Shown here: positions 5,061-56,758 of the stretch, piece by piece | How positions within the stretch are numbered: the first letter of the stretch is position 1 | Layout: each line of letters starts with the position of its first letter | Source of the DNA: a virus | Taxonomy: Duplodnaviria > Caudoviricetes | Length of the DNA stretch: 56,758 nucleotides | Direction: 5' to 3' (one strand) | Virus record (IMG/VR): IMGVR_UViG_3300009079_000001 | Coordinates: 1-56,758 of that record | Program-made: the position numbers and the translations under genes | The notes under the pieces: generated by a model | Told to the model about the DNA's origin: nothing | The model's database searches: none | What the model saw: the letters and a program-made list of their open reading frames with translations, nothing else

Positions 5061-5552
5061 TTAAACTATTCCATTTTCAGCAAAGCTATAAAACTTATCT
5101 TTACCCACAATAATGTGGTCAAGAGTTCTAATGTCAAATAATGCTAATGCATCTTTTAGTATTGTTGTTAATAGTTTATCAGCCTGACTTGGCTGTTCAT
5201 TACCACTAGGGTGGTTGTGTACTAATATTACAGCAGCAGCATTTACAGCTAATGCTTCTTTAGCAACCTCCCTAGGATAAACTGTTGCTCCATCAATTGT
5301 CCCACGAAATACCTCTTGAAACTTCAACACTTCATGTTTTGTATTAAGCCATACACAGCCAAATATCTCATGTTCCAAACTGCCTAGTTTAAAAGATAGA
5401 TAGTTTTTAACTGCTGCTGGAGATTCAAGGAAACTCCCTGACCCCAACATGCGAAGCCTAAGTATTTCTGTAGCTTCAGCTAACACTTTATCTTCATAAT
5501 AAGTGTTGATTTTACCTTCAATTATATATGTAGCATTTGTTTCTTCTTTCAT
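5061..5552 (-). CDS. radC: RadC-like JAB/MPN domain protein
   Basis: E...GTIDGATVYPREV...HNHPSG...PSQAD...LDHIIVG. Confidence 0.92.
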   Translation of the reverse strand: MKEETNATYIIEGKINTYYEDKVLAEATEILRLRMLGSGSFLESPAAVKNYLSFKLGSLEHEIFGCVWLNTKHEVLKFQEVFRGTIDGATVYPREVAKEALAVNAAAVILVHNHPSGNEQPSQADKLLTTILKDALALFDIRTLDHIIVGKDKFYSFAENGIV

Positions 5553-7888: not shown

Positions 7889-7938
7889 TTCGGGAAAAGA
7901 GCTAAAGCCTCGGAAGGAACGCAGGATTTGAAGCCCGC
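7889..7938 (-). promoter_or_regulatory. Repeated motif copy A, candidate phage RNAP promoter
   Basis: Plus-strand TTC..AAAAGAGCTAAAGCC..GGAAG.AAC..GGA...GAAGCCCGC shared with 9601-9647. Confidence 0.55.
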
Positions 7939-7973
7939 CGCGAACCTCCGAGGATAACACGCTTACAAAGCAT

Positions 7974-8213
7974 TCAAGCGTTGTAGTAGTTCAGCAGTTC
8001 ACCTTTATGATGATTGTGCTGCAATTTACTAGCACGCATTTCACGCTTGATTGCGGCTTTAAGCATAAGTTCTTTTTGAAGCTCTTTAGACTTTGGAACT
8101 TTATGCCTATAAATTAGTGTTGGGCCAAGGCTGGATATACTTATTCCATGCTTATGCCTAGAATCAAACACCATTGATCTAATTACTTGTAGCAAATTAC
8201 TAAAGTTTTTCAT
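7974..8213 (-). CDS. Hypothetical basic protein
   Basis: ATGA overlap with upstream gene. Confidence 0.65.
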   Translation of the reverse strand: MKNFSNLLQVIRSMVFDSRHKHGISISSLGPTLIYRHKVPKSKELQKELMLKAAIKREMRASKLQHNHHKGELLNYYNA

Positions 8214-8524
8214 ATGGATTTTCCATGTTCAGTTTTATGTTCGGTTTTAGGTTGAGGTGAGCCTTTAACATTATCAAAGGCAGTATTACGTGCATTAATA
8301 CTATCATCATCACCGGCAAATACATCTTCACTGTTTCCAAATGCATTCTCCCATTCTTCAGGAGTTATTCCTGTTAGAATAAACTCCCTATGGTCTGCTG
8401 AAATATCAGGCATAGCATCCTGAATATATTCTCCTTGCATCCAAGCATCTAACTGTTCTTTGGTGCAAGGAACATCAAGTGTATGCTCCTTGCCACTAAA
8501 TGGTGAACGGCGCTTAATTAACAT
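8210..8524 (-). CDS. Hypothetical phage protein
   Basis: Coupled ORF; IQDAMP...REFILTGITPEEW resembles a recurring small phage protein family. Confidence 0.8.
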   Translation of the reverse strand: MLIKRRSPFSGKEHTLDVPCTKEQLDAWMQGEYIQDAMPDISADHREFILTGITPEEWENAFGNSEDVFAGDDDSINARNTAFDNVKGSPQPKTEHKTEHGKSI

Positions 8525-8753
8525 TATCTAACATTCCTTTTAATTCTTTCTTGACATCACGAGCTACTGCTCCCCGCCATGATTGTGCATTGGCTAGGAA
8601 ACGCATAACTATTTCCCTTGCAGTATCTTGGTAGTACATACCATTGATGCTGTCAAGTTCTAGCATTGCTGATACATATGGTGCAGCATATGGAGACATT
8701 CTGTTCCAACTGCCCATAATCTGTACTGCAATTACATGTAATGGTCTGGCCAT
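8514..8753 (-). CDS. Hypothetical phage protein
   Basis: Coupled ORF; FLANAQSWRG..AR..K.ELK pattern. Confidence 0.8.
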   Translation of the reverse strand: MARPLHVIAVQIMGSWNRMSPYAAPYVSAMLELDSINGMYYQDTAREIVMRFLANAQSWRGAVARDVKKELKGMLDNVN

Positions 8754-8754
8754 A

Positions 8755-8964
8755 CTATACTATACCTACAAAATCTTCAGGTTCTACAAAGCGTTTGTTA
8801 TAGCTAATTGCTTTGCGATTATGATTGTTGCGTTGTTTCTTTGACAACACCCTGTCACTGTTTTCTTTACAGTCAGTCAGGAATTTATCCAGTTTACTTT
8901 TGTTAAAACGTCTTACTTGTACATTTTCAAGTTTGGTTTGCAAATCTTCATAGTCCATAGACAT
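8755..8964 (-). CDS. Hypothetical protein
   Basis: AAGGG RBS, first gene after the repeat region. Confidence 0.65.
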   Translation of the reverse strand: MSMDYEDLQTKLENVQVRRFNKSKLDKFLTDCKENSDRVLSKKQRNNHNRKAISYNKRFVEPEDFVGIV

Positions 8965-8991
8965 ATGTTTACCCTTATAAAATAGTAATTA

Positions 8992-9136
8992 AAAAGCAAT
9001 AGTTTAGTGTCTTTTGCTTAATAGACATGTTGTATAAAAGCTATATCTAGACAACAGGACTATAGCGTTTTTCAGCTACAGCAGTTGAATTACTTGTAAA
9101 AGCAATAGTTTAGTGTCTTTTGCTCAATAGACATGT
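8992..9136 (-). repeat. Two 39-bp direct repeats (8992-9030, 9098-9136), each a predicted H-type pseudoknot
   Basis: 38/39 identical, 67-bp spacer; minus strand TGTCT/AGACA and RAGCAA/TTGCTT stems. Confidence 0.8.
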
Positions 9137-9202
9137 ACTCAATTTATTTAGGCTAGCTGAGTGAATAAAGAACTTGCCTAAGGTTCACCAACACATATAA
9201 GT

Positions 9203-9243
9203 AAAAAGCATGAAGAGTGTGTTGTTTCAAGTCTCTTCATGCT
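9203..9243 (-). terminator. Hairpin with T tract, probable terminator or processing stem
   Basis: AGCATGAAGAG...CTCTTCATGCT-TTTT just after the stop of 9262-9528. Confidence 0.6.
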
Positions 9244-9261
9244 AGTTTGTAGCTTAGTATC

Positions 9262-9528
9262 TTAGCAATACTTAGCTACATCTTCTTCAGTCATTTCTGT
9301 GTAAGCAAGACTAATGAAAGGTTGATCGTTGGCAGACTTCTTAGTCCAACCGCTGATCCAATACCACTTACCACCAACCATAGCCTTACCACGGCTATTA
9401 GGGTGACTATCTTTCATACGCTTCTCATTCTTGAAGAGTGCGCCACTGTTATTCTGGTCGTACTTAACAGTTTCTTCTGCACCAACCAGATCTTCTGCAA
9501 CTACTTCCTGCTTATTTACTTGAGTCAT
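9262..9528 (-). CDS. Small putative ssDNA-binding protein (DUF736-like)
   Basis: NSGALFKN...HP...G...VGG..YWISGW.K....FISL pattern; AAAGGA RBS. Confidence 0.6.
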   Translation of the reverse strand: MTQVNKQEVVAEDLVGAEETVKYDQNNSGALFKNEKRMKDSHPNSRGKAMVGGKWYWISGWTKKSANDQPFISLAYTEMTEEDVAKYC

Positions 9529-9600
9529 CTTTATATCCTTTCAATTACAATTGTCGGCACTATTGCCATTTACTTCATTTTACAAGGCTCTAGGCTCTTG

Positions 9601-9647
9601 TTCAAAAAGAGCTAAAGCCAAGGAAGAAACACGGAGCCGAAGCCCGC
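9601..9647 (-). promoter_or_regulatory. Repeated motif copy B, candidate phage RNAP promoter
   Basis: Closely matches 7889-7938; intergenic, about 70 bp upstream of 9528 start. Confidence 0.55.
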
Positions 9648-9653
9648 AATACC

Positions 9654-9857
9654 TTATTTACAAATCCTTGCATACTTACGGAGATAACCATCTATCTCTT
9701 CTGTTGCAATGAGATTATATGTACGAGATTTACCATTAAGAACAAAGGTATGTTTCTCAATGTCACCTGCACACATATTATCCCAAATCTCTTCCATGAT
9801 GTTATCAACTTCTTCATTGCTTGTAACTTCATGCACTGTAGCTTCCATTAACAACAC
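9654..9857 (-). CDS. Hypothetical protein
   Basis: GAGGTG RBS-like site; ATG at 9848 is an alternative start. Confidence 0.6.
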   Translation of the reverse strand: MLLMEATVHEVTSNEEVDNIMEEIWDNMCAGDIEKHTFVLNGKSRTYNLIATEEIDGYLRKYARICK

Positions 9858-9972
9858 CTCAATATATGATAACCTATATGATAACTTACAGAACTAGTAT
9901 ATGCAGTAATAGCTACAACATATATACCAAAGCAAGATGTTGCTCTGCTCTTGCTCTGTGCTTTTGATCTGT

Positions 9973-10017
9973 TTCAAATAGAGCTAATGTATTTGATGTA
10001 GTAAGAACTTGAAGCCC
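9973..10017 (-). promoter_or_regulatory. Repeated motif copy C (degenerate)
   Basis: TTCAAATAGAGCTAA and GAAGCCC at the same 30-bp offset as copy B. Confidence 0.45.
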
Positions 10018-10105
10018 TCACACATATAATTTATACATCAGCAGGATTATCTACGTTCGACCGGTATAATTTATTGCATATACTCCAGAGCAATACATAG
10101 GTAGC

Positions 10106-10585
10106 ATAGTCTGTAAGCCCCATGATTCAAGGGCTGCCATAAGACTATAGCAATATTGTATCCAATAAATTAGAAGGGCTATGATTCAAGGGCTGAAGAA
10201 GAAAGAAAAAGATTAGCAGCCCTTGTATTAATTAAAGATAAGAAAAAAGAGAGAAGCGTGGTGTGTCCGTCTACCACACTTTTCTGTATTAATTGCGAGC
10301 ACAGATTCCAAGTGTTAACAGACTTGATTCGTCTGCCAAGAGTCTAGAACATCTTGTTGGTCTACTGTAGCTTACAGAACATGACGCTCTTGATCTTGAT
10401 TTTAAGCTCTTGATCTTTTTCAGAAAGAGCTAAACTTGAAGTCTGCACGGAGTCCTTATGTTGGACTAATACCTAGCGATAGCTCACAGACTTCTAGCTT
10501 CTTTGATTCTTGATTCAACTATATATACTAATTAAATAATATATATAGGTGAATCAAGGCTGTACAAGCCCTTGATTCGTCTGCT
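10106..10585. other. Non-coding repeat/hairpin-rich region, candidate replication origin; includes motif copy D (10419-10434)
   Basis: ATGATTCAAGGGCTG x2, inverted AGCCCTTG x2, AT-rich hairpin 10510-10558, branched hairpin 10438-10494. Confidence 0.45.
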
Positions 10586-10587
10586 GC

Positions 10588-12585
10588 TTATTCGAAGAAA
10601 TATGCTCCTTCTATCTCTAACATTGATTCATTGAATACATTCTCCACAATATTCAGCTTGTCATAATCAAATCCTACTTGATCACACAAATGCTTCAATG
10701 GATTGTTATCAATGAATATAGTCTTGTAAGCTCGCTTGATACATCCTTGTAACAAGTGAACACTAGCAGCATCACAACGGAAGCAATCATGAATACTTAC
10801 AAAGCCCTTGATTCCAGCTTTCTTAGCTTCAACTGCCACAGTTCTTGCTATCAAAGCATCTAAGCCTTGAATGAAGTTGACTAGGAACGATGTTGCAAAC
10901 CTCTCAACATCATACTCATTAGTCTTTATGGTAATGCCTGTGTTATCTATCTTACTACCAAACTCAAGTATCTTTTGTGCATCATACCTGATCTCAGTAT
11001 AATCACGAGTTATCTCCTCCATACGATAACTAGCATGATCTACAACAGTACCATCAATATGTGTATAGATGATATGTGTCACATCATTACTCAAACACAT
11101 CTCCTCAATGTGTTCTGCAAAGGCTTGTTGGAAGTTGGTTATCTTAGCTCCTAATACTTTCTTAACAGCATTGATAACAAGGTCAGCACGTTGATCATCA
11201 TCTAGATCAGGATGCAGACTCAACAGCTTACTCATTAACACCTTACATCCTTTAACAGCAGGACGACCACCACTATACATGATAGCCATGTAAGCCTTCT
11301 TAATATCTTCCCTGAGAATACGATGATCTAACTTCTCAACTGTCAGGTGATATGGATCAGGTATCCTTGTGCTGCTAAAACCACAGGCTTGCAGTAATCC
11401 TAACTCATGGAACAAGATAGCATATATCTGTGTACCAGATGACTTAGCATCATCACCTATTGATATACGGCAGTCTACACTACCTTTAACAATGATCTGA
11501 GCTATATCAATACACAGTCTCACATACATGAATGGTGATTTAACTTTACAGTCATCACCCTCATTCAGATATTGTGCAAGTGCCTGAGAAGGCTTGATAG
11601 CTACGTTACGGATATAACGCTCATCAAGATACTTGTCATCACTAACACAATCTGCTAACTCTACAAGCAACTTCTTATGAGCATATGATCCAGCATGTAC
11701 AATGCTTACATTCTGTGAAGAATATAAAGCACGATTCATATCATCACCTTGTGGGTTAACACCGTATGTAGCTCTGAAGTACATACGTCCACGGTCATCC
11801 ATATCATACTCACTATAGTATGAACTTGATGGATGTAGAGATTGTGCTCCTTTCAATGTTGCAAATGCTGACAACCAAAGCTCATGTTTATATGTTAGCT
11901 TCTTAGTTGCAAGTACCACATTCATCATATGCTCATTAGTAGAGTATTCTGAACTCTGGAGATAATCACATGCTTCAACAGCTAAGATACTTGCAGCAAC
12001 CAAGTTCTTCTTGAAGTAGTGAACACGACGATCAGCAGGATCACTTGATGTAAGTGGGCTGAACTTCATTCCCTTCATTATCAAGCTCTTGAACTTAGTG
12101 CTAGGGATGAAGCCATAATCCTCATCCTCTTGCAAGAAGCCACAAGTAGCAAGATACTCCCTTACTGGTTGAGATGCTATCTCTGTCTCCCTCCAGTTAA
12201 ACTTATCACGATTCTTCTTAATGAAGTAATCAAGATACTCGAAGTACTCAGCCTCAAGATGATGTAGTTCATCAGCTTCTTTGCAGTTATATATTGTGGC
12301 AAATACTGCCAAGGCCATTATCTGCCTCTCCACAATATTGAACACAAAGAACTCCTCTCTCCTCATAATACTCACGAAGATGCTAGGTACAGTAGATTGA
12401 ATCATGAACTCATAGTTCTTCTCTACTGTTGTCTCCTCGAAGTGTATGGTACGAAGATCATCAACTTCGATCTTGTTGATCTTGTTGACTTTGTTAGCTG
12501 CTTTCGCAGACGCCAGTGTTAATGCTTTCATAGGTGTTGCTCCTTTAGTTACAGTTGAAGTTACAGTGTTGAATACATTATTCAT
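10588..12585 (-). CDS. Single-subunit DNA-directed RNA polymerase 1 (early position)
   Basis: DDRGRMY, GVNPQG, motif A DAKSSGTQ, motif B REDIKKAYMAIMYS, NFIQGLDA, motif C SIHDCF. Confidence 0.93.
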   Translation of the reverse strand: MNNVFNTVTSTVTKGATPMKALTLASAKAANKVNKINKIEVDDLRTIHFEETTVEKNYEFMIQSTVPSIFVSIMRREEFFVFNIVERQIMALAVFATIYNCKEADELHHLEAEYFEYLDYFIKKNRDKFNWRETEIASQPVREYLATCGFLQEDEDYGFIPSTKFKSLIMKGMKFSPLTSSDPADRRVHYFKKNLVAASILAVEACDYLQSSEYSTNEHMMNVVLATKKLTYKHELWLSAFATLKGAQSLHPSSSYYSEYDMDDRGRMYFRATYGVNPQGDDMNRALYSSQNVSIVHAGSYAHKKLLVELADCVSDDKYLDERYIRNVAIKPSQALAQYLNEGDDCKVKSPFMYVRLCIDIAQIIVKGSVDCRISIGDDAKSSGTQIYAILFHELGLLQACGFSSTRIPDPYHLTVEKLDHRILREDIKKAYMAIMYSGGRPAVKGCKVLMSKLLSLHPDLDDDQRADLVINAVKKVLGAKITNFQQAFAEHIEEMCLSNDVTHIIYTHIDGTVVDHASYRMEEITRDYTEIRYDAQKILEFGSKIDNTGITIKTNEYDVERFATSFLVNFIQGLDALIARTVAVEAKKAGIKGFVSIHDCFRCDAASVHLLQGCIKRAYKTIFIDNNPLKHLCDQVGFDYDKLNIVENVFNESMLEIEGAYFFE

Positions 12586-12609: not shown

Positions 12610-13296
12610 TTAGAAAGGTAAAACTTCACGGTTATCTTCAATCCAATTGTAGAGTTCAACATCCAACTCCTTATCTTCCATCTCCCTCCTGAAGCTATGT
12701 TCCCAGACTCTGATCTGATCAGCTATACCATCATCTTCAGCCCAAGGTGCTCCAAGCTCATAGTGAATGCCACCACAAGCATGATCCTCAGCTTGCGTTA
12801 GATACCATTGCTCATCGATATACTGATTCATGTCATCAATGATATTAAGTATTGCCAAGCGTTCCTTGGTATTCTCAATACCAAATTCCCTACGCAGACA
12901 ATCTTCTGTCAAGATAGACCACATGTAGTTAAGTGTTAAGTTATTCATAGTTTGATCCTTAAGGTATACTGTAAGATGAACATCATTCTCAACTTGTTTG
13001 ATCTTCCAATCTATTACACTACTCACACACTTCAACCTCTCAATAAACTGACACTCTATGTAAGGGCGAACACTACTAACAGCAGTGCCATAAATAGCCC
13101 ATAACTCCATCTTACCATCAATGCTACCAATCTTCTTGATATCCAACAGTTCTTCTCCTAGTATGATGCAAGTGCTATTCTTCAGGGTGTTGTCAGCTTT
13201 AGCTTGAATGTTGCTCAGTTTGCGAATGAACATGGTTGTTGCTCCTTTAGTAGTTACAGTAGTGTTGGTAGTACAGGCATTAGTTACAATAGTCAT
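12610..13296 (-). CDS. Hypothetical early protein (second start at 13233)
   Basis: 228-aa ORF coupled via TAATG; internal AAAGGAG RBS before Met22. Confidence 0.8.
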   Translation of the reverse strand: MTIVTNACTTNTTVTTKGATTMFIRKLSNIQAKADNTLKNSTCIILGEELLDIKKIGSIDGKMELWAIYGTAVSSVRPYIECQFIERLKCVSSVIDWKIKQVENDVHLTVYLKDQTMNNLTLNYMWSILTEDCLRREFGIENTKERLAILNIIDDMNQYIDEQWYLTQAEDHACGGIHYELGAPWAEDDGIADQIRVWEHSFRREMEDKELDVELYNWIEDNREVLPF

Positions 13297-13643: not shown

Positions 13644-13821
13644 AGACACCCATAGTCGGACACACACTGTATTTTATTTTTTATTTAAAACACACATACT
13701 GTATTTTTATTTTTATTTAGGACACACACACCGTATTTATAAAAAATTTTACAAACGCTAAAGGACACACGTGGCTTCAGCCACTACTACACACTACACA
13801 CACGGGATTTTAAAATTTTTT
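13644..13821. repeat. Degenerate tandem repeats GGACACAC(AC)-YGTATTT plus A/T tracts
   Basis: About 5 units at 31-43 bp spacing in the gap between late and early regions. Confidence 0.75.
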
Positions 13822-13956
13822 GCGACTGCGGAAAAAAGACATTGTATCAAGGGCTAAAAAAAAATTTTTTATAACACAGACTATCTACTATATGTAATAC
13901 TATATAATTATATTGGTCGATCTTAACTTTGGAAAAGATTATGCAATAACACTGTA

Positions 13957-14017
13957 GGAGGGAGCTAAAAAATATATTCTGAGCGTAAGCGAAAGAATAT
14001 ATTCTTTAGGTCACTCC
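13957..14017. other. Long imperfect hairpin with GAGCGTAAGCGAA apex
   Basis: GGAG..CTAAA.AATATATTCT / AGAATATATT.TTTAG..CTCC arms. Confidence 0.65.
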
Positions 14018-14083
14018 GTAACAAATATAGATTATAAACAAAAGAAAGAAGAAGAAGAGCTTTCTTTTTATAATATTGAAATG

Positions 14084-14113
14084 GGAAAAGCTCCTTTTGG
14101 AGGGAGCTTTTCC
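14084..14113. terminator. Strong hairpin, likely late-transcript terminator
   Basis: GGAAAAGCTCC...GGAGCTTTTCC downstream of the last late gene. Confidence 0.55.
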
Positions 14114-14241
14114 TTATTTCATAAGTTACAATATTGTTAAAATACTATAATAGTATTGTTCACTTTTTTATTTAAAAGCTTTTTTAAGGCTCTTTTTCAC
14201 TCATTTTTCCCAAAAATAGTTAATATTTAGCTAAATATTCC

Positions 14242-16600: not shown

Positions 16601-16617
<17 letters not shown>
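16117..16617 (-). CDS. Putative tail fibre tip adhesin / receptor-binding protein
   Basis: MALPSSG...ISIANFHGK N-terminal attachment-type motif; aromatic/Gly-rich; directly after long fibre. Confidence 0.55.
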
Positions 16618-21631
<5,014 letters not shown>

Positions 21632-44155: not shown

Positions 44156-44393
44156 TTTTAGCCCTCTTACTTGTATAGCCATTGGGCTTTTCAATATGGT
44201 ACTCAGGCTTAGTACTAATAATAAGTTCTGCCTTTTCTCCAGAGGTTTCTACAGTGGCAATCTTATTGCCCTGCTCGTCTACAATATGAAAGAGATTGTT
44301 GCCAGATGCTTTCTTACACAATCTTGTGTTCAGCATACATATCTCCTTATTAAACCCATGACTCGTAGTTAGCAGAGCTACCACTGTATACAA
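44148..44393 (-). CDS. Hypothetical protein (true start likely 44340 or 44336)
   Basis: AAGGAG RBS just after terminase stop. Confidence 0.65.
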   Translation of the reverse strand: MYTVVALLTTSHGFNKEICMLNTRLCKKASGNNLFHIVDEQGNKIATVETSGEKAELIISTKPEYHIEKPNGYTSKRAKNE

Positions 44394-46353
44394 TATCTAC
44401 AGCATCACTAACATTATCTACACAGTCATCATGCCCTGTACCACTTCCCAAGCCTGTCATAGATAGTATCTCCCTCATGAAATGTGCTTTATGTACATGT
44501 TCATGTGGAAACCATATTCTACCTTGTGCGAAGTAGGGGACAGCATTAAGGAATCTCGCTATCTTATCTCCGCTACTCTTATCTTTAGGAACTGGCAGTA
44601 TTCTAATATTACCATCTCTAGTAAACTGTTGGTTTAAGAACTGTCCACTACTCTTATCTTCCATATATAGTGCAGTTGGGAGCATAGTTGGGAAGTTCAT
44701 ATCTAATACATTATGCTTATTCCAAAACTTAATTAATTCTTTCTTTAGTTCAGGTGTTTCATACTTACCTAACATAATATCTAACAGATGTAAATCATTA
44801 GCATAAGTCACACCCCAAAAACAAGCTACTGAATAGTCAGAGTAGTCCTTTGTAGTTGATGCAGTATCAGCAGTCATAAATGTACGAGAGAATAATTTCT
44901 TATCTATCTCATGCCATTCTTGCCACCATTCATCTTGTACAAGTCCTGTACCTTGTGCAGTAGGATCACCCATATACTGACTGTTAAATGTATATGGTGT
45001 TGCCTGCTTCATAGCTAAGAGAGAATCTAAATTCTTTCTTGAAGGCCATAATGCAGAAGGATATTCTTCTCTGTTTAATTTATACAACACTGGTTTAGCA
45101 TGTGTGTAGCTTTGCTTTTCTAATATTCTTTCATACCAACCTTTGCTACCAGTTTCTTTGTCAATGATGCCAGGAATGTTTAAGTAGTCATAAGTATCAG
45201 AAGAGTTTCCTCTTAACAAATAACCAATTAAGTCTAGGTCATGTACTCTCTGCATAATAATAACGATAGGAGTACGAGGACACTTTACAATTTTACCACT
45301 GTCATCTTGCACTTCACCATCATTAGCCAAACGTGACATAAATGTGTTGTCGTATCTATCATTTATCTCACCTCTGATTGCTGGAGAATAAGCATCTTTA
45401 GGTTTAATACTATCATCGACTACAAACACTCCAGAGTATTTAGTAGATAATGATCCAGCACCTTTACCAGTAAGTTTACCACCAGTAGGTACTGCGTGCA
45501 TTACACCACCTTTAGTTGTTCCCCATCTTTCCAAAGATCGTTTAGAAGAATCAATCCTAAGAGAAGGATAGATCTTCATAAATAATTCAGAAAGCATAAC
45601 ACTACGAATATAGCCAGAAGATTCGGAAACAACATCATCTGCATAAGAAGTAATAATATTATGCGAACCAGGATTATGGCAAAAGGAAAAGAGTGGTAAA
45701 GATATAGATAGTATTTGAGTTTTAGAATGTCGAGGAGGAATAGTAATAATAACTCTATCACGTTTACCATCTACAACATCTTGGCAGACATCAAACATAA
45801 TGGAGTGAAAGTCTTGCATCTGAAACTTAAAGCCCATTTGTATTTCAAAAGTCCAAAGAGCAAAAGCTTTGAAATCATTATGGAAAAGTTTCCTTACTGC
45901 AATACAATCTTCATTACTAATTTTACTAATATCTACTTCTAAAGGACTATTAACAATCTCATCTACCATACTCTTTTGCTTTTTATTTGCTGTTGCTATT
46001 TTTGCTCTACCATCTGCATCTACTTCTACTTTACCACCTGTTACTATCTTCTTTATTTCATTTGCGAAGATAGTATTATTCTTATGGTCTGCTTTCTCAA
46101 AAGCTTTTAATTGAGCTTCTTGTAGAGAACTTAGTATAGCATTATCTTCCAGTCCTTGACCTTCAATCTCACTATCTAAATTGATTTTGTATCGTTCTAA
46201 TATAAATGGATTCTCAGATATATATTTTCTGAGTTGTGGTAATGGTAATAATATACCTCTTGTTCTACTTACTTTTAGCAGGTCGCCATAGTATTGTGTT
46301 AAGAGGGATACTATATAGTTATCTACCTGTTCATCTATTGGCTGACTTAACAT
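44350..46353 (-). CDS. Terminase large subunit with long N-terminal extension
   Basis: IPPRHSKT Walker A, LTGKGA, VVDD Walker B, MQRVH..DL.G, ADTA, EDKSSG, HDD.VD nuclease. Confidence 0.95.
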   Translation of the reverse strand: MLSQPIDEQVDNYIVSLLTQYYGDLLKVSRTRGILLPLPQLRKYISENPFILERYKINLDSEIEGQGLEDNAILSSLQEAQLKAFEKADHKNNTIFANEIKKIVTGGKVEVDADGRAKIATANKKQKSMVDEIVNSPLEVDISKISNEDCIAVRKLFHNDFKAFALWTFEIQMGFKFQMQDFHSIMFDVCQDVVDGKRDRVIITIPPRHSKTQILSISLPLFSFCHNPGSHNIITSYADDVVSESSGYIRSVMLSELFMKIYPSLRIDSSKRSLERWGTTKGGVMHAVPTGGKLTGKGAGSLSTKYSGVFVVDDSIKPKDAYSPAIRGEINDRYDNTFMSRLANDGEVQDDSGKIVKCPRTPIVIIMQRVHDLDLIGYLLRGNSSDTYDYLNIPGIIDKETGSKGWYERILEKQSYTHAKPVLYKLNREEYPSALWPSRKNLDSLLAMKQATPYTFNSQYMGDPTAQGTGLVQDEWWQEWHEIDKKLFSRTFMTADTASTTKDYSDYSVACFWGVTYANDLHLLDIMLGKYETPELKKELIKFWNKHNVLDMNFPTMLPTALYMEDKSSGQFLNQQFTRDGNIRILPVPKDKSSGDKIARFLNAVPYFAQGRIWFPHEHVHKAHFMREILSMTGLGSGTGHDDCVDNVSDAVDIVYSGSSANYESWV

Positions 46354-46547
46354 TACATAGAGTCCTTATCAAACTCTCTACTGCGTTTAACTCTTTCTTC
46401 AAATTCCCTACGGTTCTCTGAATTAAAGTTATCTGTATCTCTAATAATCTTTTGTTCCATGTTGAATGTAGCATCACAACATGGACACTCTGTTTGGCCA
46501 TAACTTAGGCAAGCATGGCAAGCTGGACATAAAATATGAATAGCCAT
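46353..46547 (-). CDS. Small zinc-ribbon protein
   Basis: CPAC...CPCC; AAAGGAG RBS; TAATG-coupled to terminase. Confidence 0.75.
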   Translation of the reverse strand: MAIHILCPACHACLSYGQTECPCCDATFNMEQKIIRDTDNFNSENRREFEERVKRSREFDKDSM

Positions 46548-46686
46548 TGGATTCTCCTTTAATTTTTATTTAATAAACTTTTGTAGCGCCTTCTTATGGA
46601 TACCCCTGATACCTACAGCCCTAGTGCCCCGTGGCTTTCAGGAAACGGCCTTTGGCCAATTTCCCGAAAACTTTGGAAACTTTTTG

Positions 46687-48495
46687 TTAGCTGAAGAATT
46701 TCGGACACTTCATCACTGTTGTTACATCCCAAGTTCCTAGTGTTGGATGATCTGGAAGCTCTACATTGTAAAACATTTCCCAATATTCCTTAAGTTCCTG
46801 CATTATATTACGAGAATACAAAGCAACAAACTCTTGTCGTATGATCTTATCCAGCATTGGTATGTAATTAGCATGTACTGCAAAGGAGTCATGTATCCAA
46901 ATAGAGTCTAGTCCCATATCATTAAGCCGTTTTGCTACCATCCTAAGATGTGTAGCGTCTAAGCTATGAATGATGTTAGGGCCAATCGCTAGTTGAGCTT
47001 TAGAGAGTTTAGGCACAAACCTACCATCTTCTATTATGTCATCCTTACAATCTACTGTGAATGATTTCCTTCTTACAATAACCTTTACCTGTGTGAACTC
47101 TTTCTTAGTATAAGACTGTCTAGCCATGAAACCATCTGGAGTAGGCCACTGTATTTCATAGTGACCTTTCTCAGTGATTATTCTGACACACTCTTTAAGC
47201 CAGTCTACACCAGCTACCATTGGTTGTAGTATTTCATTGGAAACATTAAACATAGAACTACCTAAAGCAGAACTAATCTTTATATCTAGTTCAGGATATA
47301 AGTCACGCATATTATCCATTGAGGACATACGAGTTGCTGAGTATGCGAAAGTCATGACTGTTTTCTTTGCAGTCTTTCTTATTCCATACTTCTTATATTC
47401 TTCTTCCAGCGTTTCTCTCCAACGATATGCTACATACTCATAAATATCCATACCATCTTCAGCAGGTAATACTTCCATACCTAATCTGTTTGTAATGGCA
47501 TTAGTTCTGAGCAGTGCTGACCAATGTTGTAGTCCTGAACACTTACCATCTCTCTCTACAAAAGAGTTAATTGGAGCATCAGGATTGGTTAGATATTCTC
47601 TAATGGTTTGAGCCACTGCAAGCCCGTAAAACGGCTTGTCCCAGTCCATCCAGCCCCTGTCAGTCAGCGCATTGGCTGCTGCCGTGGCGTATGCGTAGGC
47701 TTTGGCCTCCGGTGGTAGGGCAGTAAGGGTAGGGCATTCAGACTGGCTGTCAGCGTGGCTCAGGAGGGCCATTAGACCGCCAGGACTCAAAACCTCCCTG
47801 TGTGAAGGTATGCACATTGCCTTCTCATAATTACTACCTTGAGGATTTACTCCCACTGTTACATCACAATAGGTTCTTCCTCTACAGTCTAGGAAGTATG
47901 GAAACCTAAACTTATCGTGGCCTACAATTACAGATGTTTCTACAGCCCTGTGTGCCATTACATCCTTATGAACATCCATCACTTGAGGAATTATGTCTGC
48001 TATAAAATGGTTAACTTCAAACACAGTTTGAGAGATACCTTCAATGACTTCATAATGTACCTTTTGTGCAATACCTCTCCTAACTTCTGGACTTGGTATC
48101 TCAAGCCCAAGAAGAATAGGATACTTCAGGCTCTCTGGTAGAGTTCCTTCAGTAAGTATATATAGTAGTTTGTCAGTAGGTTGGTATAAGGTTTGTTTCC
48201 ACTTTGCATTAATAGGATGCTGAATCTTAATCTTCCTCATAAAGCCTGCAAGCTCTAGTGCTATTAACAGGTTAAAGCTAATAGACCAATCATCATGCAG
48301 ATACTTAACAAGATAAGCAGCAGTATCACTTCCTTCACGCTTTGTGGCCAATGCAGTATAGAGCTTAGGTATACAATCAACATATACCTGAGCATCTTTC
48401 CTATATGGTGGTCGGAGGTTAGGTATCAACCTCCTAGCAACAACTTCTTCAAATCTGCGATGTTTGAACAACTTCTCCGGTAATAATACTTCCAT
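46687..48495 (-). CDS. Single-subunit DNA-directed RNA polymerase 2
   Basis: DCRGRTY, GVNPQG, motif A DGKCSGLQH, motif B RKTAKKTVMTFAYS, W.TPDGF...Q.Y, PNIIHSLDATHL, motif C WIHDSF. Confidence 0.95.
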   Translation of the reverse strand: MEVLLPEKLFKHRRFEEVVARRLIPNLRPPYRKDAQVYVDCIPKLYTALATKREGSDTAAYLVKYLHDDWSISFNLLIALELAGFMRKIKIQHPINAKWKQTLYQPTDKLLYILTEGTLPESLKYPILLGLEIPSPEVRRGIAQKVHYEVIEGISQTVFEVNHFIADIIPQVMDVHKDVMAHRAVETSVIVGHDKFRFPYFLDCRGRTYCDVTVGVNPQGSNYEKAMCIPSHREVLSPGGLMALLSHADSQSECPTLTALPPEAKAYAYATAAANALTDRGWMDWDKPFYGLAVAQTIREYLTNPDAPINSFVERDGKCSGLQHWSALLRTNAITNRLGMEVLPAEDGMDIYEYVAYRWRETLEEEYKKYGIRKTAKKTVMTFAYSATRMSSMDNMRDLYPELDIKISSALGSSMFNVSNEILQPMVAGVDWLKECVRIITEKGHYEIQWPTPDGFMARQSYTKKEFTQVKVIVRRKSFTVDCKDDIIEDGRFVPKLSKAQLAIGPNIIHSLDATHLRMVAKRLNDMGLDSIWIHDSFAVHANYIPMLDKIIRQEFVALYSRNIMQELKEYWEMFYNVELPDHPTLGTWDVTTVMKCPKFFS

Positions 48496-49438
48496 AATCC
48501 CACTCTCCTGTTAGGCCACTAACTGAGTATTCAGAAACAGTAGCTTCAAAGAAGTTAGTCTGCCCTTCTGCAATAATCCAGTCAAGCCAAGGAAAAGGAT
48601 TAGTAACACCTGTCCAGTTGTCCTTAAAACCAATTTGATTCAGTCTGCGATTAGCAATGAAACGAATATACTGTTTAACTTCCAGAGCAGTAATGCCTTC
48701 TACACCACCCATCTTAAATGCATCATCAATGAAAGCATCTTCCAATGCTACAGCATCTCTGTACATCTGATAAATAGATAGCTTGAATTCATCTGTCAGT
48801 ATACCTTGGTTTTCTTTGCAGTAAGCCTTAAAGAGTTCAGACATTCCAAGTACATGTTCTGTCTCATCTCTCAGACTCCATTCTGTAATAGAGCAGAGTC
48901 CTTTCATCTTACCAAACCTCTGGAAGTTTAATAGCATGACAAAGCTGCTAAACAAACTCATACCTTCATTGCATACAGATTGTGCAAGACTCTTGGCAAT
49001 ACCTTTAGGAGTACCAATATTGTTATCTTGCATCATATAGATCTTGGCAGCCATATGTTCAAAGTTCAGAAACTCTGAATAGATATGTTCAGGCAAACCA
49101 ATAGTATCTGTAAACAAAGCATAAGCTCGCTGGTGAATACCTTCTCTTGCTGCGAAAGCAAGTAGCATACATCTCACTTCATTGTTCTTGAATATAGGAA
49201 TAAACAAGTCACAATAGTTCTGACCTACTTGTACATCTGTTTGAGTAAAGAGCTTCATAATTTGTAGTATGAAGTTCTTTTCCTCTGGAGATAGTATGTC
49301 ACCACTATTCCATTGCATTACATCATCACCAAGTTCTACTTCTTCCTCAGCCCAATGGATAAGTTCATGCCTGTTGGCAAAGTCCATAAACTGAGGATAC
49401 TTGAATGGCTTATATGTTTTACTAAACTCTGTTAACAT
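48449..49438 (-). CDS. nrdB: Ribonucleotide reductase class I beta subunit
   Basis: FTQTD, EGIHQRAY, EGMSLFSSF, RDETEH di-iron ligands; NFFE. Confidence 0.95.
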   Translation of the reverse strand: MLTEFSKTYKPFKYPQFMDFANRHELIHWAEEEVELGDDVMQWNSGDILSPEEKNFILQIMKLFTQTDVQVGQNYCDLFIPIFKNNEVRCMLLAFAAREGIHQRAYALFTDTIGLPEHIYSEFLNFEHMAAKIYMMQDNNIGTPKGIAKSLAQSVCNEGMSLFSSFVMLLNFQRFGKMKGLCSITEWSLRDETEHVLGMSELFKAYCKENQGILTDEFKLSIYQMYRDAVALEDAFIDDAFKMGGVEGITALEVKQYIRFIANRRLNQIGFKDNWTGVTNPFPWLDWIIAEGQTNFFEATVSEYSVSGLTGEWDYGSIITGEVVQTSQI

Positions 49439-49447
49439 ATACTTCTC

Positions 49448-51211
49448 CTATGCGTGGCAAGCTGTACATTCTTCTGCATCACCAAGTATTTCCCTGACGA
49501 TAGCAGAACTAACTTTATCAGCCTGTACAACACTACCTGTTCTCAAGTAGTAAAGTCCTTTAAGCCCCATCTTCCATGCCATGTAGTGAATGTAATTAAC
49601 CAAACCTTTATCAGCATTAGCCTTAAAGTATAAGTTAACAGATTGACCTTGACATAGAAATTCCTGTCTTGCAGACGCCTGATTAATAACAGCAATCATG
49701 TTTATTTCCTTAAAGGTTTTAAACACTGCCTTCTCATCATCAGACAAACAATGCAGCTTCTGCACACTACCTTCGTTCTGGATAATAAGTTCCCACTGTT
49801 TGTTAATCCATTCAGTAGAAGTCATTCCCATCATGTTAAGTGTTTTCCAAGGTACTTTATTCTCTAGCAGTTCTTGGAGATATTGATTCTTAACAAGGTG
49901 TGTTCCAATCCTAGTGCGGTGAGCATAAGCATTACTATTAACAGGCTCAATACTAGCAGTACAGTTGGCCATGATCGAACTGTTCGCATTAGGTGCAATT
50001 GCAAGTAAGTGCAAGTTACGACACTTATAACCAGCATCAACAGCGTCAGGACAGCTACCTCGAATTGTAGCCAGTCGAATGGTTGCACGTTGTGCCTCCG
50101 CTTTTATATATGAGAATATATTTCTCGTTAATCTTACAGCATCATCACTCTCGAAAGGAATCATCCGCTTCATCAGCAGACCATGCCAGCCCATTGCTCC
50201 AATACCAATATCTCTACTTCTTTCAGCAGCATATCTTGCTCTGCTAATATTATCAGGAGCCTTATTAATAAAGACTTCCAATACATTATCCAGCATCTCT
50301 ACTAGGTCTTGTACCAGTGTTTCACTCCAGTCATTTAGTGTTTCTAAGTTAAGACTAGCAAGACAACAAACTGCTGTTCTTTCCTCATCTGTTACTAAGT
50401 GAATTTCATTACATAGGTTAGAACCTTTGATAGAGAGATTTAACTTCTGTTGTGCTGGATGCAAAAAGCGGTTAGCAGTGTCAATGAAGTTAAAGTATGG
50501 TTCACCAGTTCGGTGTCTAACAGTGAGAGCAAGCTCCCACAGTTCCCTAGCCTTAACTACCTCTTTAGTCGATCCAGTCTTAGGATCAATTAAAGCCCAC
50601 TCTCCATTACTCTCTACAGCTTCCATGAAAATATCAGGGATATTTATAGCGTTATGAATGTTAGTGGATTTTCGGTTAATGTCACCACCAGGAACACGCA
50701 CAGAAATAAACTCCCTAATGTCAGGATGAGAAATATCCATGTAAGCAGCATATGCTCCTTTTCTTGTTTCTCCTTGTTTGTATGCAGTAAGAGCACCATC
50801 AACAGAATGCAAGAAAGGAATAGGGCCAGGACTCTTACTTGATACACATCGTATATCGTTCCAATGTCCACCTACTCCACCTCCATAAACAGACAACCAT
50901 TTAGTCTCAATTTCATGTCCAATAAGTCCTTCTAGTGTATCTGGGACATAAGACAAGAAACAAGATATGGGTAGCCCACGATCTGTAGGACTACAATTAG
51001 AAAGGATAGGACTAGAAAACATAAAGTGTAATCTAGAGACTGCATCGTACAACCTTTGCGCGTGTTCATCATCACTCCCGAAATACATACAAGCTCTTGC
51101 AAAAGCATCTTGAGGAGAGGTATCTCCCTCCTTCATATAATGCTTTTGTATTAGCTCTTTACCTTGTTGTGTTAAAAGTTCATCCCTAGAATAATCAATC
51201 TTAATTTTCAT
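49448..51211 (-). CDS. nrdA: Ribonucleotide reductase class I alpha subunit (no ATP cone)
   Basis: SSPILSN, PISCFL, SNLCNEI, VCCLASLNL, AIAPNANSS, LYYLR, C-terminal CTAC. Confidence 0.95.
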   Translation of the reverse strand: MKIKIDYSRDELLTQQGKELIQKHYMKEGDTSPQDAFARACMYFGSDDEHAQRLYDAVSRLHFMFSSPILSNCSPTDRGLPISCFLSYVPDTLEGLIGHEIETKWLSVYGGGVGGHWNDIRCVSSKSPGPIPFLHSVDGALTAYKQGETRKGAYAAYMDISHPDIREFISVRVPGGDINRKSTNIHNAINIPDIFMEAVESNGEWALIDPKTGSTKEVVKARELWELALTVRHRTGEPYFNFIDTANRFLHPAQQKLNLSIKGSNLCNEIHLVTDEERTAVCCLASLNLETLNDWSETLVQDLVEMLDNVLEVFINKAPDNISRARYAAERSRDIGIGAMGWHGLLMKRMIPFESDDAVRLTRNIFSYIKAEAQRATIRLATIRGSCPDAVDAGYKCRNLHLLAIAPNANSSIMANCTASIEPVNSNAYAHRTRIGTHLVKNQYLQELLENKVPWKTLNMMGMTSTEWINKQWELIIQNEGSVQKLHCLSDDEKAVFKTFKEINMIAVINQASARQEFLCQGQSVNLYFKANADKGLVNYIHYMAWKMGLKGLYYLRTGSVVQADKVSSAIVREILGDAEECTACHA

Positions 51212-51219
51212 ATAACCTC

Positions 51220-51909
51220 TTAAGTGATAATGTTAGGGAAGAATTCTTTCAACGCCTCCTTAACTTTGTTAGCAACAATAACGTGCTCTTTCTGAGTACC
51301 GTTACCTTCTCGTACAGCAATGTAGTGCATCCAAGACCTCAAGTTACCAGTCATGTATAGACGAGTAAGTGTTAGTCCTTCAGGTAGAATACAGCGAGCA
51401 ACCTCTTTAGCAACACCAGCATCAATCAGCCTATTGTAGTGATACATAGCAGCTTGAGTTACTTCATGCTGTGCATCTAGCCACATATTAATAATGTCTC
51501 TGCGCTCTTCCTTATTAAGGTTTGCACACTCTGACATCATTACACTGTTCTGCCTGTTGCTATAGTCTTGCATACGACATTCACGCTGAGTAAAAGTGTC
51601 GTTAATTACTGCTGCATATCTCTGACTAAACTCTTGAAAGCTGAAACTACGATGCCTCAATATTTGCCTACTAATATCTCTAGGACAAATTATTTCGACT
51701 GTGGCAGTGGCTTGTTCAAATACTGACCAATGTCCATGGGATGCACAGTAGTTGAGCAATCCTTTCGCTGTATCAAAGTTGTCTTGATTTGAAGGATTGC
51801 TAACTCTCGCTGCATAGCTGATAACACCCTCAGCATTTGGAATGTCATTAGTAACTGGCTCAGACACAGAAATAACACGGACAGCAATATCATTGTGGAA
51901 TTCATGCAT
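51220..51909 (-). CDS. thyX: Flavin-dependent thymidylate synthase
   Basis: H.SVFE, RHRSFSFQEFSQRY, KEVAR..LP, GNLRSW.HY. Confidence 0.95.
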   Translation of the reverse strand: MHEFHNDIAVRVISVSEPVTNDIPNAEGVISYAARVSNPSNQDNFDTAKGLLNYCASHGHWSVFEQATATVEIICPRDISRQILRHRSFSFQEFSQRYAAVINDTFTQRECRMQDYSNRQNSVMMSECANLNKEERRDIINMWLDAQHEVTQAAMYHYNRLIDAGVAKEVARCILPEGLTLTRLYMTGNLRSWMHYIAVREGNGTQKEHVIVANKVKEALKEFFPNIIT

Positions 51910-52384
51910 TACTTGCTCCTTGTTTTAGGACAGCCTCATCTTCATTATCTTCATCTGCATCAGCATCTGGCATATTATCTTCTGGAGGCAACATACCAAC
52001 TTCTGCATAGTATTGCTTGCAGATAGTTAGGTAGGATGGATCAGTTGACTTCACGAAGATGTTGTTGTACATGATACCTTTACGGTCTTTAATGTCATTA
52101 TAAGCAGCATCAAGACATGAGATAAAAGATACATTATTCCGGATGCAGATATTAACAAGCACCACCATAATGTCACCAACATCGTCACGAATATCCTTTC
52201 CTTTACAGAGGCTATCACTTAGTTCTCCCACTTCTTGAATAAGTTTCATGAACTGAGTTTTATCATCAGAACCATCCAACAAGTTACGGTTGGAGTGCCA
52301 TGTGGCAATATCCCTCAGACGCATTCCAATATGTTTGTAGTCCTTAAACTCAGCAATAACCTTTCTAGCTTCTAGTCTATTCAT
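51902..52384 (-). CDS. MazG-like nucleotide pyrophosphohydrolase
   Basis: KLIQEVGEL...DDVGDIMVVL...AYNDIKDRKG. Confidence 0.88.
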   Translation of the reverse strand: MNRLEARKVIAEFKDYKHIGMRLRDIATWHSNRNLLDGSDDKTQFMKLIQEVGELSDSLCKGKDIRDDVGDIMVVLVNICIRNNVSFISCLDAAYNDIKDRKGIMYNNIFVKSTDPSYLTICKQYYAEVGMLPPEDNMPDADADEDNEDEAVLKQGASNA

Positions 52385-55416: not shown

Positions 55417-56127
55417 TTAATATGGAACATCAGCATCCAGATCAACATCTTCATCAACCAGTTCGTTAGGAGCATCATCTTCATTAGAGTCACTAACTTC
55501 TTCAGGTGTTGCACCGAGCATCTTCTGAATCAGAGAGCCTTGGAAAGAACTAGAAGCCATGATACGATCACGTTGAGCGTACTTGTTACCAGAGTACAAC
55601 TTGTTCCATGCTTCCATAGTCGGTTCAGCCATATCGAAGAACAATGGAGTATTAATCAGAGCAGGTGCTGCAGCTACTTCCTTAGCCTTCATGGTCAGAA
55701 CAGATACAACCTTGTTATCTTCCTTACCTGCATTCTTGCCAGACTTCTTAATGTACTTAGAGATCATTACATTGACTGGAGTACCAATCATTTCACTCAA
55801 GGACATTGTAAAGCCTTCTGGAATGGCGCTAATAAGTTTGTAGATATTAGCCTTCTCGTTCATATAACCATCAGCATTATATGTAACTTCATAGCTAAAT
55901 ACACGAGGCTTGTCAGTAAGAACTTTGCCTTCTTCATCTAGCATGAATTCGTCAAGCAGCTCAAAGCGGAATTCGAGTTTCAGCTTTTCTTCTGGGTACT
56001 GTGGAGAGCCTGGTTGCATACCAAGGTCTACAATACTAAGAATACGTGCTGGGTATACACCTTCATCTAGCAAAGGTGCTGTGCTTTTTACTTTGTCGCC
56101 TGCTTTTACGGGTTTTGCGAATGCCAT
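55417..56127 (-). CDS. Putative single-stranded DNA-binding protein
   Basis: G.YPARI..IVDLG.Q; acidic tail ending D.DVPY; between polymerase and exonuclease. Confidence 0.65.
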   Translation of the reverse strand: MAFAKPVKAGDKVKSTAPLLDEGVYPARILSIVDLGMQPGSPQYPEEKLKLEFRFELLDEFMLDEEGKVLTDKPRVFSYEVTYNADGYMNEKANIYKLISAIPEGFTMSLSEMIGTPVNVMISKYIKKSGKNAGKEDNKVVSVLTMKAKEVAAAPALINTPLFFDMAEPTMEAWNKLYSGNKYAQRDRIMASSSFQGSLIQKMLGATPEEVSDSNEDDAPNELVDEDVDLDADVPY

Positions 56128-56414: not shown

Positions 56415-56758
56415 ATGCTAATGTTACATTAAGCTGTAGCATATCATTAACCTTGTCCATTGCCTCATAAACAACATCACCTAATGCTTCAAGTGATCTC
56501 TCGTTATCTTTAAGTCGCATAACAAGTTCATCATGAAACTCTCCAATTACAGGAGCATTGCTGCCATACCTTTCATTACAAATCTGGTGGCAACTTTCAA
56601 TCCACATATCACAGATATAACTACCAGTGCCTTGGCACAATGTACTAAATCTGTCCTTCTCTGACTTCAACCAATACCAGAAACCATTAACAGGATTACG
56701 TTGCCAAGAATTTTGAATACACTTCTTAGTTTCTGTACTCTCTGCAATAGCATCAATA
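56374..56758 (-). CDS. Family A DNA polymerase, C-terminal part
   Basis: STLCQGTG, motif C FHDE, terminal GDNYAEIH; in frame with 1-1691. Confidence 0.95.
   Translation of the reverse strand, partial: IDAIAESTETKKCIQNSWQRNPVNGFWYWLKSEKDRFSTLCQGTGSYICDMWIESCHQICNERYGSNAPVIGEFHDELVMRLKDNERSLEALGDVVYEAMDKVNDMLQLNVTLACAVSFGDNYAEIH
56636..56758. repeat. 123-bp terminal direct repeat, copy 2
   Basis: Identical to 1-123. Confidence 0.95.

Follow-up and report, generated by a model that had tools for sequence, protein, structure and literature searches.

Does a phage genome that carries two single-subunit RNA polymerases (RNAPs) of the T7 family make use of both and, if so, how are the tasks shared between them? 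The question is raised by IMG/VR virus record IMGVR_UViG_3300009079_000001, a stretch of 56,758 nt analysed here in full (“the window”), which represents a complete genome (CheckV 100%) of an uncultured marine, chasevirus-like myovirus. All the long open reading frames (ORFs) of the window lie on the minus strand; among them are RNAP1 (10588..12585, −; 665 amino acids, aa), an orthologue of the Chaseviridae polymerase, and RNAP2 (46687..48495, −; 602 aa), whose family groups with the Autographiviridae polymerases. Both genes are intact, catalytically complete by their motifs and RNAP-folded; they come from different lineages, are co-inherited and are located at conserved positions. We consider that these two RNAPs, from two deep lineages of the T7 family, are most likely used successively, RNAP1 for the early and middle genes and RNAP2 for the late ones, a view to which we would give slightly better than even chances; the timing, the gene set of each enzyme and the promoters are the parts of this scheme that we infer.

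The original prediction, made from the sequence alone, had announced two separate and intact single-subunit RNAPs; its coordinates and lengths (602 and 665 aa) are exact, with both genes on the minus strand, and the profile, motif and structure checks all came out in its favour. Against Pfam PF00940 (cut-off 22 bits), RNAP2 is found at E 7.5e-52 (177.1 bits) and RNAP1 at E 1.7e-11 (44.1 bits), and against PHROG 414 “RNA polymerase” at 2.6e-72 and E 4.9e-53, respectively. When aligned with T7 RNAP (where DxRGR is D421/R423/R425 and NPQG occupies positions 433-436), RNAP2 displays D203-x-R205-G-R207, N217-PQG, D316 (T7 D537), R373/K377/Y385 in motif B (T7 R627/K631/Y639) and H535-D536 in motif C (T7 H811-D812), while RNAP1 displays D263-x-R265-G-R267, N277-PQG, D379 (again T7 D537), R425/K429/Y437 and H599-D600. 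The catalytic residues are invariant in 27 sequences of the RNAP2 family, with identity down to 32%, and in 24 RNAP1-type sequences, with identity down to 22%. Neither protein fails to model as an RNAP: the AlphaFold (AF2) models reach a predicted local distance difference test score (pLDDT) of 89.4 and a predicted template-modelling score (pTM) of 0.86 for RNAP2, and of 84.0 and 0.81 for RNAP1, where residues 1-55 are of low confidence. In Foldseek, RNAP2 finds its best solved matches among the RNAPs of mitochondria and of T7 (E 1e-20 to 1e-24), and the RNAP1 model matches T7 RNAP at E 7e-18; both models match T7/mitochondrial RNAPs with template-modelling (TM) scores by query of 0.55-0.72 and E 1e-17 to 1e-24. 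As for the sequence traits that the two enzymes had been said to share, GVNPQG is present in both, but YS is not a common trait: the RNAP2 family carries YS or YN, and G438 (YG) is at least 90% conserved among the relatives of RNAP1, so that the serine carried by RNAP1 itself beside its motif B tyrosine (G438S) is a private change.

The N-terminal part of RNAP2 is short, with about 196 aa ahead of the DxRGR block versus about 414 aa in T7 RNAP. Its first 200 residues resemble the RPOL_N domain (language-model features, score 0.94) and have no match among cultured phages; beyond the polymerase and this RPOL_N-like N-terminus, no domains were found in RNAP2. In the model and alignment, a beta-hairpin is located at the position of the T7 specificity loop, and no counterpart of the N-terminal promoter-binding elements of T7 could be matched in RNAP2 or RNAP1. 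An Atlas structure search returned a weak winged-helix (MarR/HxlR-type) resemblance, with TM 0.37-0.48, for residues 8-118 of RNAP2 (window ~48142-48474), which form four helices and a beta-hairpin. That the N-terminus is a compact promoter-binding module is possible from this model, as a lead only, with TM below 0.5.

The RNAP2 ATG is preceded by an AGGAGAG Shine-Dalgarno sequence. The RNAP1 start is ambiguous, with an ATG at 12585 or at 12534 and a ribosome-binding site at each; the protein would be 648 aa long if the latter were used. A near-identical leader, CTGTAACTA..AAAGGAGCAACA.C.ATG, occurs at 12523-12560 and 13225-13262 (−), ahead of an internal ATG, one in RNAP1 and the other in the 228-aa ORF upstream of it. 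The annotated starts of these two ORFs may lie too far upstream, or the leader may be a translation-initiation cassette common to both. The word CTATTGTAA, which we had considered as a promoter, was rejected as it corresponds to a leader/ribosome-binding-site repeat plus matches in coding sequence.

The two enzymes had been described as highly diverged and, indeed, they share 20% identity (E 2e-9). The best named matches of RNAP1 are chasevirus RNAPs of the Erwinia phage Y2 type (32% identity over 91%); it matches 117 records, all below 60% identity, and a word-seeded homologue search with RNAP1 returned the query itself only. For RNAP2, the best named matches are phiKMV-type Autographiviridae enzymes (Caulobacter phages Quill and Lullwater, Xylella phage Prado, Ralstonia phage RSB3), at 28-30% identity over the C-terminal two thirds (E down to 2e-35); metagenomic relatives number 43, i.e., 45 matches minus the query and one 886-aa outlier, with 32-66% identity. 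Megablast of the locus against cultured phages gave no match, and neither did a single-sequence search of viral contigs.

We then placed both enzymes in an unrooted tree of 40 rows (quick IQ-TREE with Shimodaira-Hasegawa-like approximate likelihood-ratio test support, SH-aLRT), for which the program warns of long branches meeting. A phylogeny with Chaseviridae, Autographiviridae and N4 was one of the checks asked of the prediction, and it separates RNAP1 from RNAP2: the RNAP1-type enzymes group with Chaseviridae (support 99) and the RNAP2 family with Autographiviridae (support 99), the RNAP2 family alone having a support of 99 and a long branch of 1.88. RNAP1 shares the DAKxSG and HDCFR variants with its Chaseviridae orthologues (Erwinia phage Y2 gp01, phiEcoM-GJ1 gp01), and RNAP2 shares the DGxCSGxQH and HDSF variants with its nearest named relatives (phiKMV gp26 and the Lullwater, Prado and RSB3 enzymes). 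N4 gp16 falls on the RNAP1 side of the tree and is too distant for a meaningful pairwise alignment, the similarity being at motif level only (E 0.009 and 1.9). Judged from their sequences, RNAP1 and RNAP2 are not recent duplicates and represent two deep T7-family lineages.

Is this pair of polymerases a peculiarity of one genome? Among the first-examined related viral records (n = 5), both types were found in 4/4 of those at least 90% complete. A search of viral contigs with an RNAP1 profile then gave 52 loci, from which 29 records of at least 45 kb were scanned with an RNAP2 profile. In 8 of these 29 near-complete RNAP1-type records, or 9/30 if the window is included, RNAP2 is present at full length, with E ≤ 1e-214 and an open frame of 594-623 aa; 19 others show only a weak match to the RNAP2 profile (E 5e-13 to 4e-8), which falls on the RNAP1-type gene where coordinates were checked, and 2 show no match at all to this profile. 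Conversely, a second distinct RNAP is absent from all 9 named cultured chaseviruses (Y2, GJ1, pAh6-C, Spp001, VPs20, Myduc, PM1, Faunus and pAh6.2TG); Y2 and PM1 give two equal-scoring RNAP matches, one per record end, which we read as terminal-repeat copies, and the RNAP of VPs20 is missed altogether by Pfam. The ICTV profile likewise gives one RNAP for chaseviruses and describes their promoters as not identified (PMC12842549). Thus, the copy count proposed as a further check yields one RNAP in each of these cultured chaseviruses, whereas the window phage and eight related records have, in addition, a polymerase from a different lineage: in an uncultured marine sister group of Chaseviridae, chasevirus-type and autographivirus-type polymerases coexist, and this coexistence is conserved.

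The pair is also conserved in its position. The order replication module, RNAP2, terminase, structural genes, then RNAP1 is kept in the related genomes G001, G003 and G004, the ribonucleotide reductase genes being beside RNAP2 in the window only; at the other RNAP2 loci compared, too, RNAP2 stands between the replication module and the terminase. The RNAP1 and RNAP2 sub-trees are congruent, with the window and G001 versus G003 and G004 in both. Between the window and G001, RNAP1 (36% identity) and RNAP2 (49%) are the least conserved core genes, compared with 64-78% for the large terminase (TerL), capsid, portal and primase. Five runs labelled marine metagenome, all from 2017 and possibly from one campaign, contain half or more of the words sampled from the locus; among the 15 sequencing runs found, none that contains it is listed as RNA. 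Contigs of three runs span the NrdB/RNAP2 and RNAP2/TerL junctions without indels; the contig of run X1 is near-identical and may itself be the source of the window, in which case X2 and X3 are the independent bridges, with the same caution that the runs are possibly from one campaign. In contigs of four marine runs, the listed variants amount to one site in RNAP2 (synonymous, Arg553; 0.6 per kb), 16 sites in TerL (8.0 per kb) and 10 sites in NrdB (10.1 per kb). Of the six coding stretches that were scored, RNAP2 varies least; the 195-nt zinc-ribbon ORF has no variant.

Whether RNAP2 was gained by this group or lost by its cultured relatives is a related question. In the RNAP1 tree, the window and G001 group with cultured Chaseviridae (support 88), leaving G003 and G004 outside; the approximately unbiased (AU) test does not reject a single clade uniting the four dual-genome RNAP1s (p = 0.142), and we therefore claim no direction, gain or loss. 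The TerL and capsid of the single-RNAP phage Y2 are closer to those of the window (61%/58% identity) than those of the dual-RNAP G003 and G004 are (40-45%/41-42%), a hint that the two-polymerase state may be ancestral.

The chasevirus-like nature of the window follows from its gene content: 34 of its minus-strand ORFs are collinear with their matches in Erwinia phage Y2 (Chaseviridae), including DNA polymerase, 5'-3' exonuclease, ligase, TerL (61% identical to Y2 gp62), portal, capsid (58%), sheath, baseplate and primase-helicase (43% to Y2 gp49). The structural module and gene order are those used to define Chaseviridae; the genome departs from the ICTV definition (52-56 kbp, one large single-subunit RNAP) by its 56,635 bp and its two RNAP genes. 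This unique length takes into account a 123-bp direct repeat (1-123 = 56636-56758) that falls within the DNA polymerase gene, which is split, with its two ends at both window ends; we thus read the repeat as the overlap of a circularly permuted assembly, an artefact and not a physical end. In relatives of the window, the true ends adjoin RNAP1, and the RNAP1-type gene is within the terminal repeat, or beside it, at the genome's left-hand end. In the dual-RNAP relative G003 (L103, L105), an identical sequence is found at 665 and at 56090, 55,425 bp apart, a recurrence that implies that this genome has a true terminal repeat of about 3.6 kb; the one annotated in Proteus phage Myduc, of 3.2 kb, is of similar size.

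How, then, could the two enzymes share the genome? RNAP1 heads the early region. RNAP2, as had been stated, is the last gene before the zinc-ribbon ORF, the terminase and the structural block, at the middle/late boundary, and is preceded by ThyX thymidylate synthase (51220..51909, −; PF02511, E 6e-44) and by the ribonucleotide reductase large chain NrdA (49448..51211, −; PF02867, E 3.8e-100) and small chain NrdB (48449..49438, −; PF00268, E 4.5e-65). The 3' end of NrdB overlaps the start of RNAP2 by 47 nt, which makes RNAP2 the last cistron of the middle operon. Downstream, the late block opens with a 64-aa zinc-ribbon ORF (46353..46547, −; CPAC...CPCC), whose end overlaps the start of TerL (44350..46353, −); portal, protease, capsid, sheath, baseplate and fibre genes come next in a block collinear with Y2. 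A Cys-rich 92-aa ORF occupies the place of the zinc-ribbon ORF in L005 and L007.

In the scheme that we favour, the host polymerase would make RNAP1 first; RNAP1 would then transcribe the small early ORFs together with the genes for replication and nucleotide metabolism and, lastly, RNAP2, which would be translated as the final gene of the middle operon. RNAP2 would initiate within the 139-nt gap located just past its own stop codon, and would read the nearly gap-free block of about 30 kb that comprises the packaging, structural and lysis genes. According to PMC5638911, phiKMV-type podoviruses are thought to use the RNAP gene found at the same position in this way, as a late polymerase. Such a cascade, already put forward in the original prediction, fits the gene positions, the phiKMV analogy and the fact that the cis-motifs in the early region are distinct from those at the junction; the conserved pair and its boundary position stand, and the assignment of RNAP1 to early/middle and of RNAP2 to late genes is still a reading of them.

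The junction itself is a non-coding gap of 139 nt between RNAP2 and the late block (46548..46686, −), with three population variants, and is a candidate late promoter or processing signal. From 46.5 to 16.1 kb, the late block contains three gaps of at least 35 nt, and the 139-nt gap is the only one at the block head. A conserved box, AAAGTTTnCAAAnTTTTnGGnAnATTGGC (46655..46683, −), begins 4 nt past the RNAP2 stop codon and is in single copy in G000 and G001; it is common to the window, G001/G002 (G001/L005) and L007, whose RNAP2 is only 49% identical. A stable hairpin, GGGAAAUUGGCC-AAA-GGCCGUUUCC (46641..46665, −), is present in both the minimum free energy (MFE) and centroid structures and has no U-run after it; for the 161-nt stretch that contains it, the whole-stretch z-score is only -1.56.

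In the other subclade (9 distinct loci), the same site 3' of the RNAP2 stop codon carries another element, made of an outer stem, an internal loop with an invariant GYTACYA, an inner stem of 3-4 bp and then (A)GGGAGAGG, with a GCTAATGGTAAG box ahead of it (L008:4656-4721, L009:4694-4759, L010:4659-4724, L011:2565-2630, L017:4658-4723, L023:4655-4720, L024:4642-4707, L028:4649-4714 and L029:4678-4743). Pairing is found in 90.9% of cells versus 66.4% in shuffles (reached by 0/500 shuffles), falls to 57% or less once the 3' partner is slid, and 9 of the 11 pairs have changed on both sides. The complete element is in single copy per genome, and four loci searched against Rfam gave 0 matches at E ≤ 1. 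Among the five records searched for its GYTACYAYYYYG core, extra copies were seen at G003:8258, G006:21854 and G004:21407; as these are without the rest of the element and in coding sequence, we no longer considered it as a multi-copy promoter. A DNA hairpin promoter of the N4 kind, on the template strand, is also unlikely, as the element contains G-U pairs on the coding strand, which favour an RNA structure (a processing or regulatory site) over a DNA hairpin promoter. From its sequence pattern, the element may thus be an RNA processing/regulatory site, or it may be a hairpin-embedded promoter.

The early region looks different. On the 3' side of RNAP1 (7898..10433, −), four sense-strand copies of TTAGCTCT(t/a)T start at 10433, 9987, 9615 and 7905, three of the four being located 25-31 nt after GGGCTTC, and the early region of G001 contains three copies of ATTAGCTCG. 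These TTAGCTC motifs are confined to the early regions (4 copies in the window, 3 in G001), and the units that contain them are candidate early/middle promoters or terminator-promoter units. Between the end of the late/lysis block and the RNAP1 operon, a 576-nt gap (13666..14241, −) contains a 14-bp terminator-like hairpin at 14083-14114 and sigma-70-like hexamer pairs, e.g., at 13935-13907 with 10/12 matches.

Several points weigh against the successive use of RNAP1 and RNAP2. The division into an early/middle and a late step is our best reading of gene position only. The sigma-70-like consensus matches upstream of RNAP1 are not enriched (36 found versus 40.0 +/- 6.6 in shuffles), which makes them weak evidence for a host promoter there. 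Repeat and k-mer searches of the window found no repeated T7-style promoter consensus: the general repeat search was dominated by the collagen-like repeats of the fibre gene, and k-mer enrichment in 19 intergenic stretches returned mostly ribosome-binding sites. The element 3' of RNAP2 is single-copy and differs between subclades and, in one of them, it is a covarying hairpin that points to an RNA structure and not to a duplex promoter. Cultured chaseviruses get by with the RNAP1-type enzyme alone, so that RNAP1 could in principle serve the late genes too. Finally, as the record is a permuted assembly, the idea that RNAP1 enters the cell first is taken from the relatives in which the RNAP gene is in the terminal repeat.

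The alternative that survives best, though we judge it unlikely, is that RNAP1 and RNAP2 are partly redundant and transcribe overlapping gene sets, the second enzyme being an insurance against host defences or inhibitors, or serving in different hosts or conditions. The viability of the single-RNAP chaseviruses, the lack of RNAP2 in 21/29 of the related near-complete records and the fact that no clear-cut pair of genome-wide promoter sets was found would all suit such an arrangement. It accounts less well for a position at the middle/late junction that is strictly conserved, for the joint divergence of the two genes across deep distances (with TerL identity as low as 40%), or for cis-motifs that are distinct between the early region and the junction.

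RNAP2 could also serve DNA replication, by making primers or by activating an origin through transcription, instead of transcribing late genes. Both T7 RNAP and mitochondrial RNAP make primers or activate origins by transcription, and a role of this kind would explain why RNAP2 is found at the end of the replication/nucleotide module. Its gene is embedded in a DNA-metabolism operon after ThyX, NrdA and NrdB, its best solved structural matches are mitochondrial RNAPs, and the one conserved cis-element per genome beside it would suit a single origin. However, the phage possesses its own primase-helicase, the 43% match to Y2 gp49 mentioned above; the conserved neighbour of RNAP2 in G001, G003 and G004 is the terminase, and not the polymerase or primase genes; and the nearest relatives of RNAP2 are the late-gene transcriptases of phiKMV-type phages. 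On balance, we find a replication role quite improbable.

A virion-packaged RNAP2, injected to produce the first transcripts as in N4, was the other function offered in the original prediction, and the data speak against it to the point that we hold it to be very improbable. The gene does adjoin the packaging/structural block, and PMC3821669 gives N4 as a precedent for an injected T7-family polymerase. However, RNAP2 is a 602-aa protein with only a polymerase and an RPOL_N-like N-terminus and no extra domains; it is matched by Autographiviridae enzymes at E 1e-26 versus about 1e-10 for N4-type virion RNAPs, and its gene is coupled to NrdB by the 47-nt overlap, with the gap standing between it and the late genes. 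Nor is there any ORF resembling a giant virion RNAP, PF00940 matching only the 602- and 665-aa ORFs; the two window ORFs above 1,500 aa are a collagen-repeat fibre and a homologue of a Y2 virion structural protein. That one RNAP gene is in decay, has lost its activity or results from a chimeric assembly can hardly be right: the low conservation of RNAP1 and RNAP2 among core genes (36% and 49% between the window and G001) and the private G438S next to the RNAP1 motif B tyrosine would be expected from it, but the catalytic residues are all invariant, both models are confident, neither stops nor indels occur in the window, the 8 other genomes or the junction-spanning contigs of three runs, and the sole RNAP2 variant is synonymous.

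Returning to the successive use of the two enzymes, a bolder version of it can be formulated, which we regard as speculative and rather doubtful as a whole. RNAP2 would be a dedicated late polymerase acting at only one site in each genome, namely the conserved element past its own stop codon, which in part forms a hairpin, and would produce the whole of the ~30 kb as one transcript; the site would be recognised by an N-terminal domain that is compact, perhaps of winged-helix type and different from that of T7; the two-polymerase state would be ancestral to all of the chasevirus lineage, with RNAP2 lost in the cultured family; and the two enzymes would be naturally orthogonal and very small (~600-650 aa).

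Comparison with known systems helps to situate the pair. RNAP1 and RNAP2 share with T7 RNAP its fold and all its catalytic motifs; T7 RNAP is an 883-aa enzyme and the sole RNAP gene of T7, and their short N-terminal domains do not align with its own. With phiKMV-type phages, the window, G001, G003 and G004 share a layout, present in all the nearest named relatives of RNAP2, in which the RNAP gene ends the DNA-metabolism cluster and the structural genes come next; phiKMV-type enzymes are 800-880 aa long (803-883 aa for the reference enzymes) and belong to podoviruses with one RNAP, whereas RNAP2 is 602 aa long, is without about 200 N-terminal residues, and is encoded by a myovirus that has a second RNAP. 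N4 (Schitoviridae) has an RNAPII of similar total size, encoded by two genes (269 + 404 aa), and the third polymerase of the N4 scheme is that of the host. According to PMC3821669, N4 is a phage with two T7-family polymerases used in temporal order, a virion RNAP of ~3,500 aa and the heterodimeric RNAPII. The RNAPs of the window differ from these in being both single chains (602 and 665 aa), each encoded by one open frame that includes motifs A, B and C. The genome of Lactococcus phage KSY1 (Chopinvirus) has also been reported to contain two T7-like RNAP genes; this podovirus, with a genome of 79 kb, has a Gram-positive host, and its RNAPs reportedly make up a clade of their own (PMC11476376). 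Its Gp014 and Gp033 are among the structural matches of RNAP2, weakly so (E 1e-9 and 4e-7, TM 0.34).

With N4 and KSY1 as precedents (PMC3821669 and PMC11476376), two T7-family polymerases per phage are already known, so that the uniqueness first implied for this genome was overstated and the chasevirus-like case is a variant. For chasevirus-like phages, two polymerases of the T7 family are not reported in the literature searched, which included PMC12842549, 10.1101/2025.10.29.685362, PMC3821669, PMC5638911 and PMC11476376, supplementary gene tables aside. Transcription in chaseviruses is uncharted, and a dual-RNAP sister group with candidate cis-elements offers a handle on gene scheduling in such myoviruses. 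If true, the scheme would be the first T7-style cascade with both steps run by small single-chain phage polymerases, unlike N4. The pair also bears on the spread of the T7 family among tailed phages, as an N4 RNAPII/chasevirus-like branch and an autographivirus-like branch are found in one genome and, if both enzymes prove to be promoter-specific and orthogonal, they would be compact candidates for expression tools.

Some minor observations complete this description. The RNAPs of Nefertitivirinae (L115, Aeromonas phage pAh6-C; L116, Shewanella phage Spp001; L121, Aeromonas phage pAh6.2TG) are annotated at 781-844 aa versus about 640 aa in Cleopatravirinae, and are also much longer than RNAP1; among polymerases of the chasevirus lineage, the N-terminal domain thus differs widely in size. 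A RadC-like “DNA repair protein” (phrog_10276; 5061-5552, −) is encoded in the early region, and a MazG-like pyrophosphatase (51902-52384, −) adjoins ThyX. Finally, the tail fibre of 1,676 aa (16601-21631, −) combines long repeats of the collagen triple-helix type (PF01391, E 7.8e-63) with an endosialidase-chaperone domain (PF13884) at its C-terminus, and has no counterpart of comparable size in Y2.

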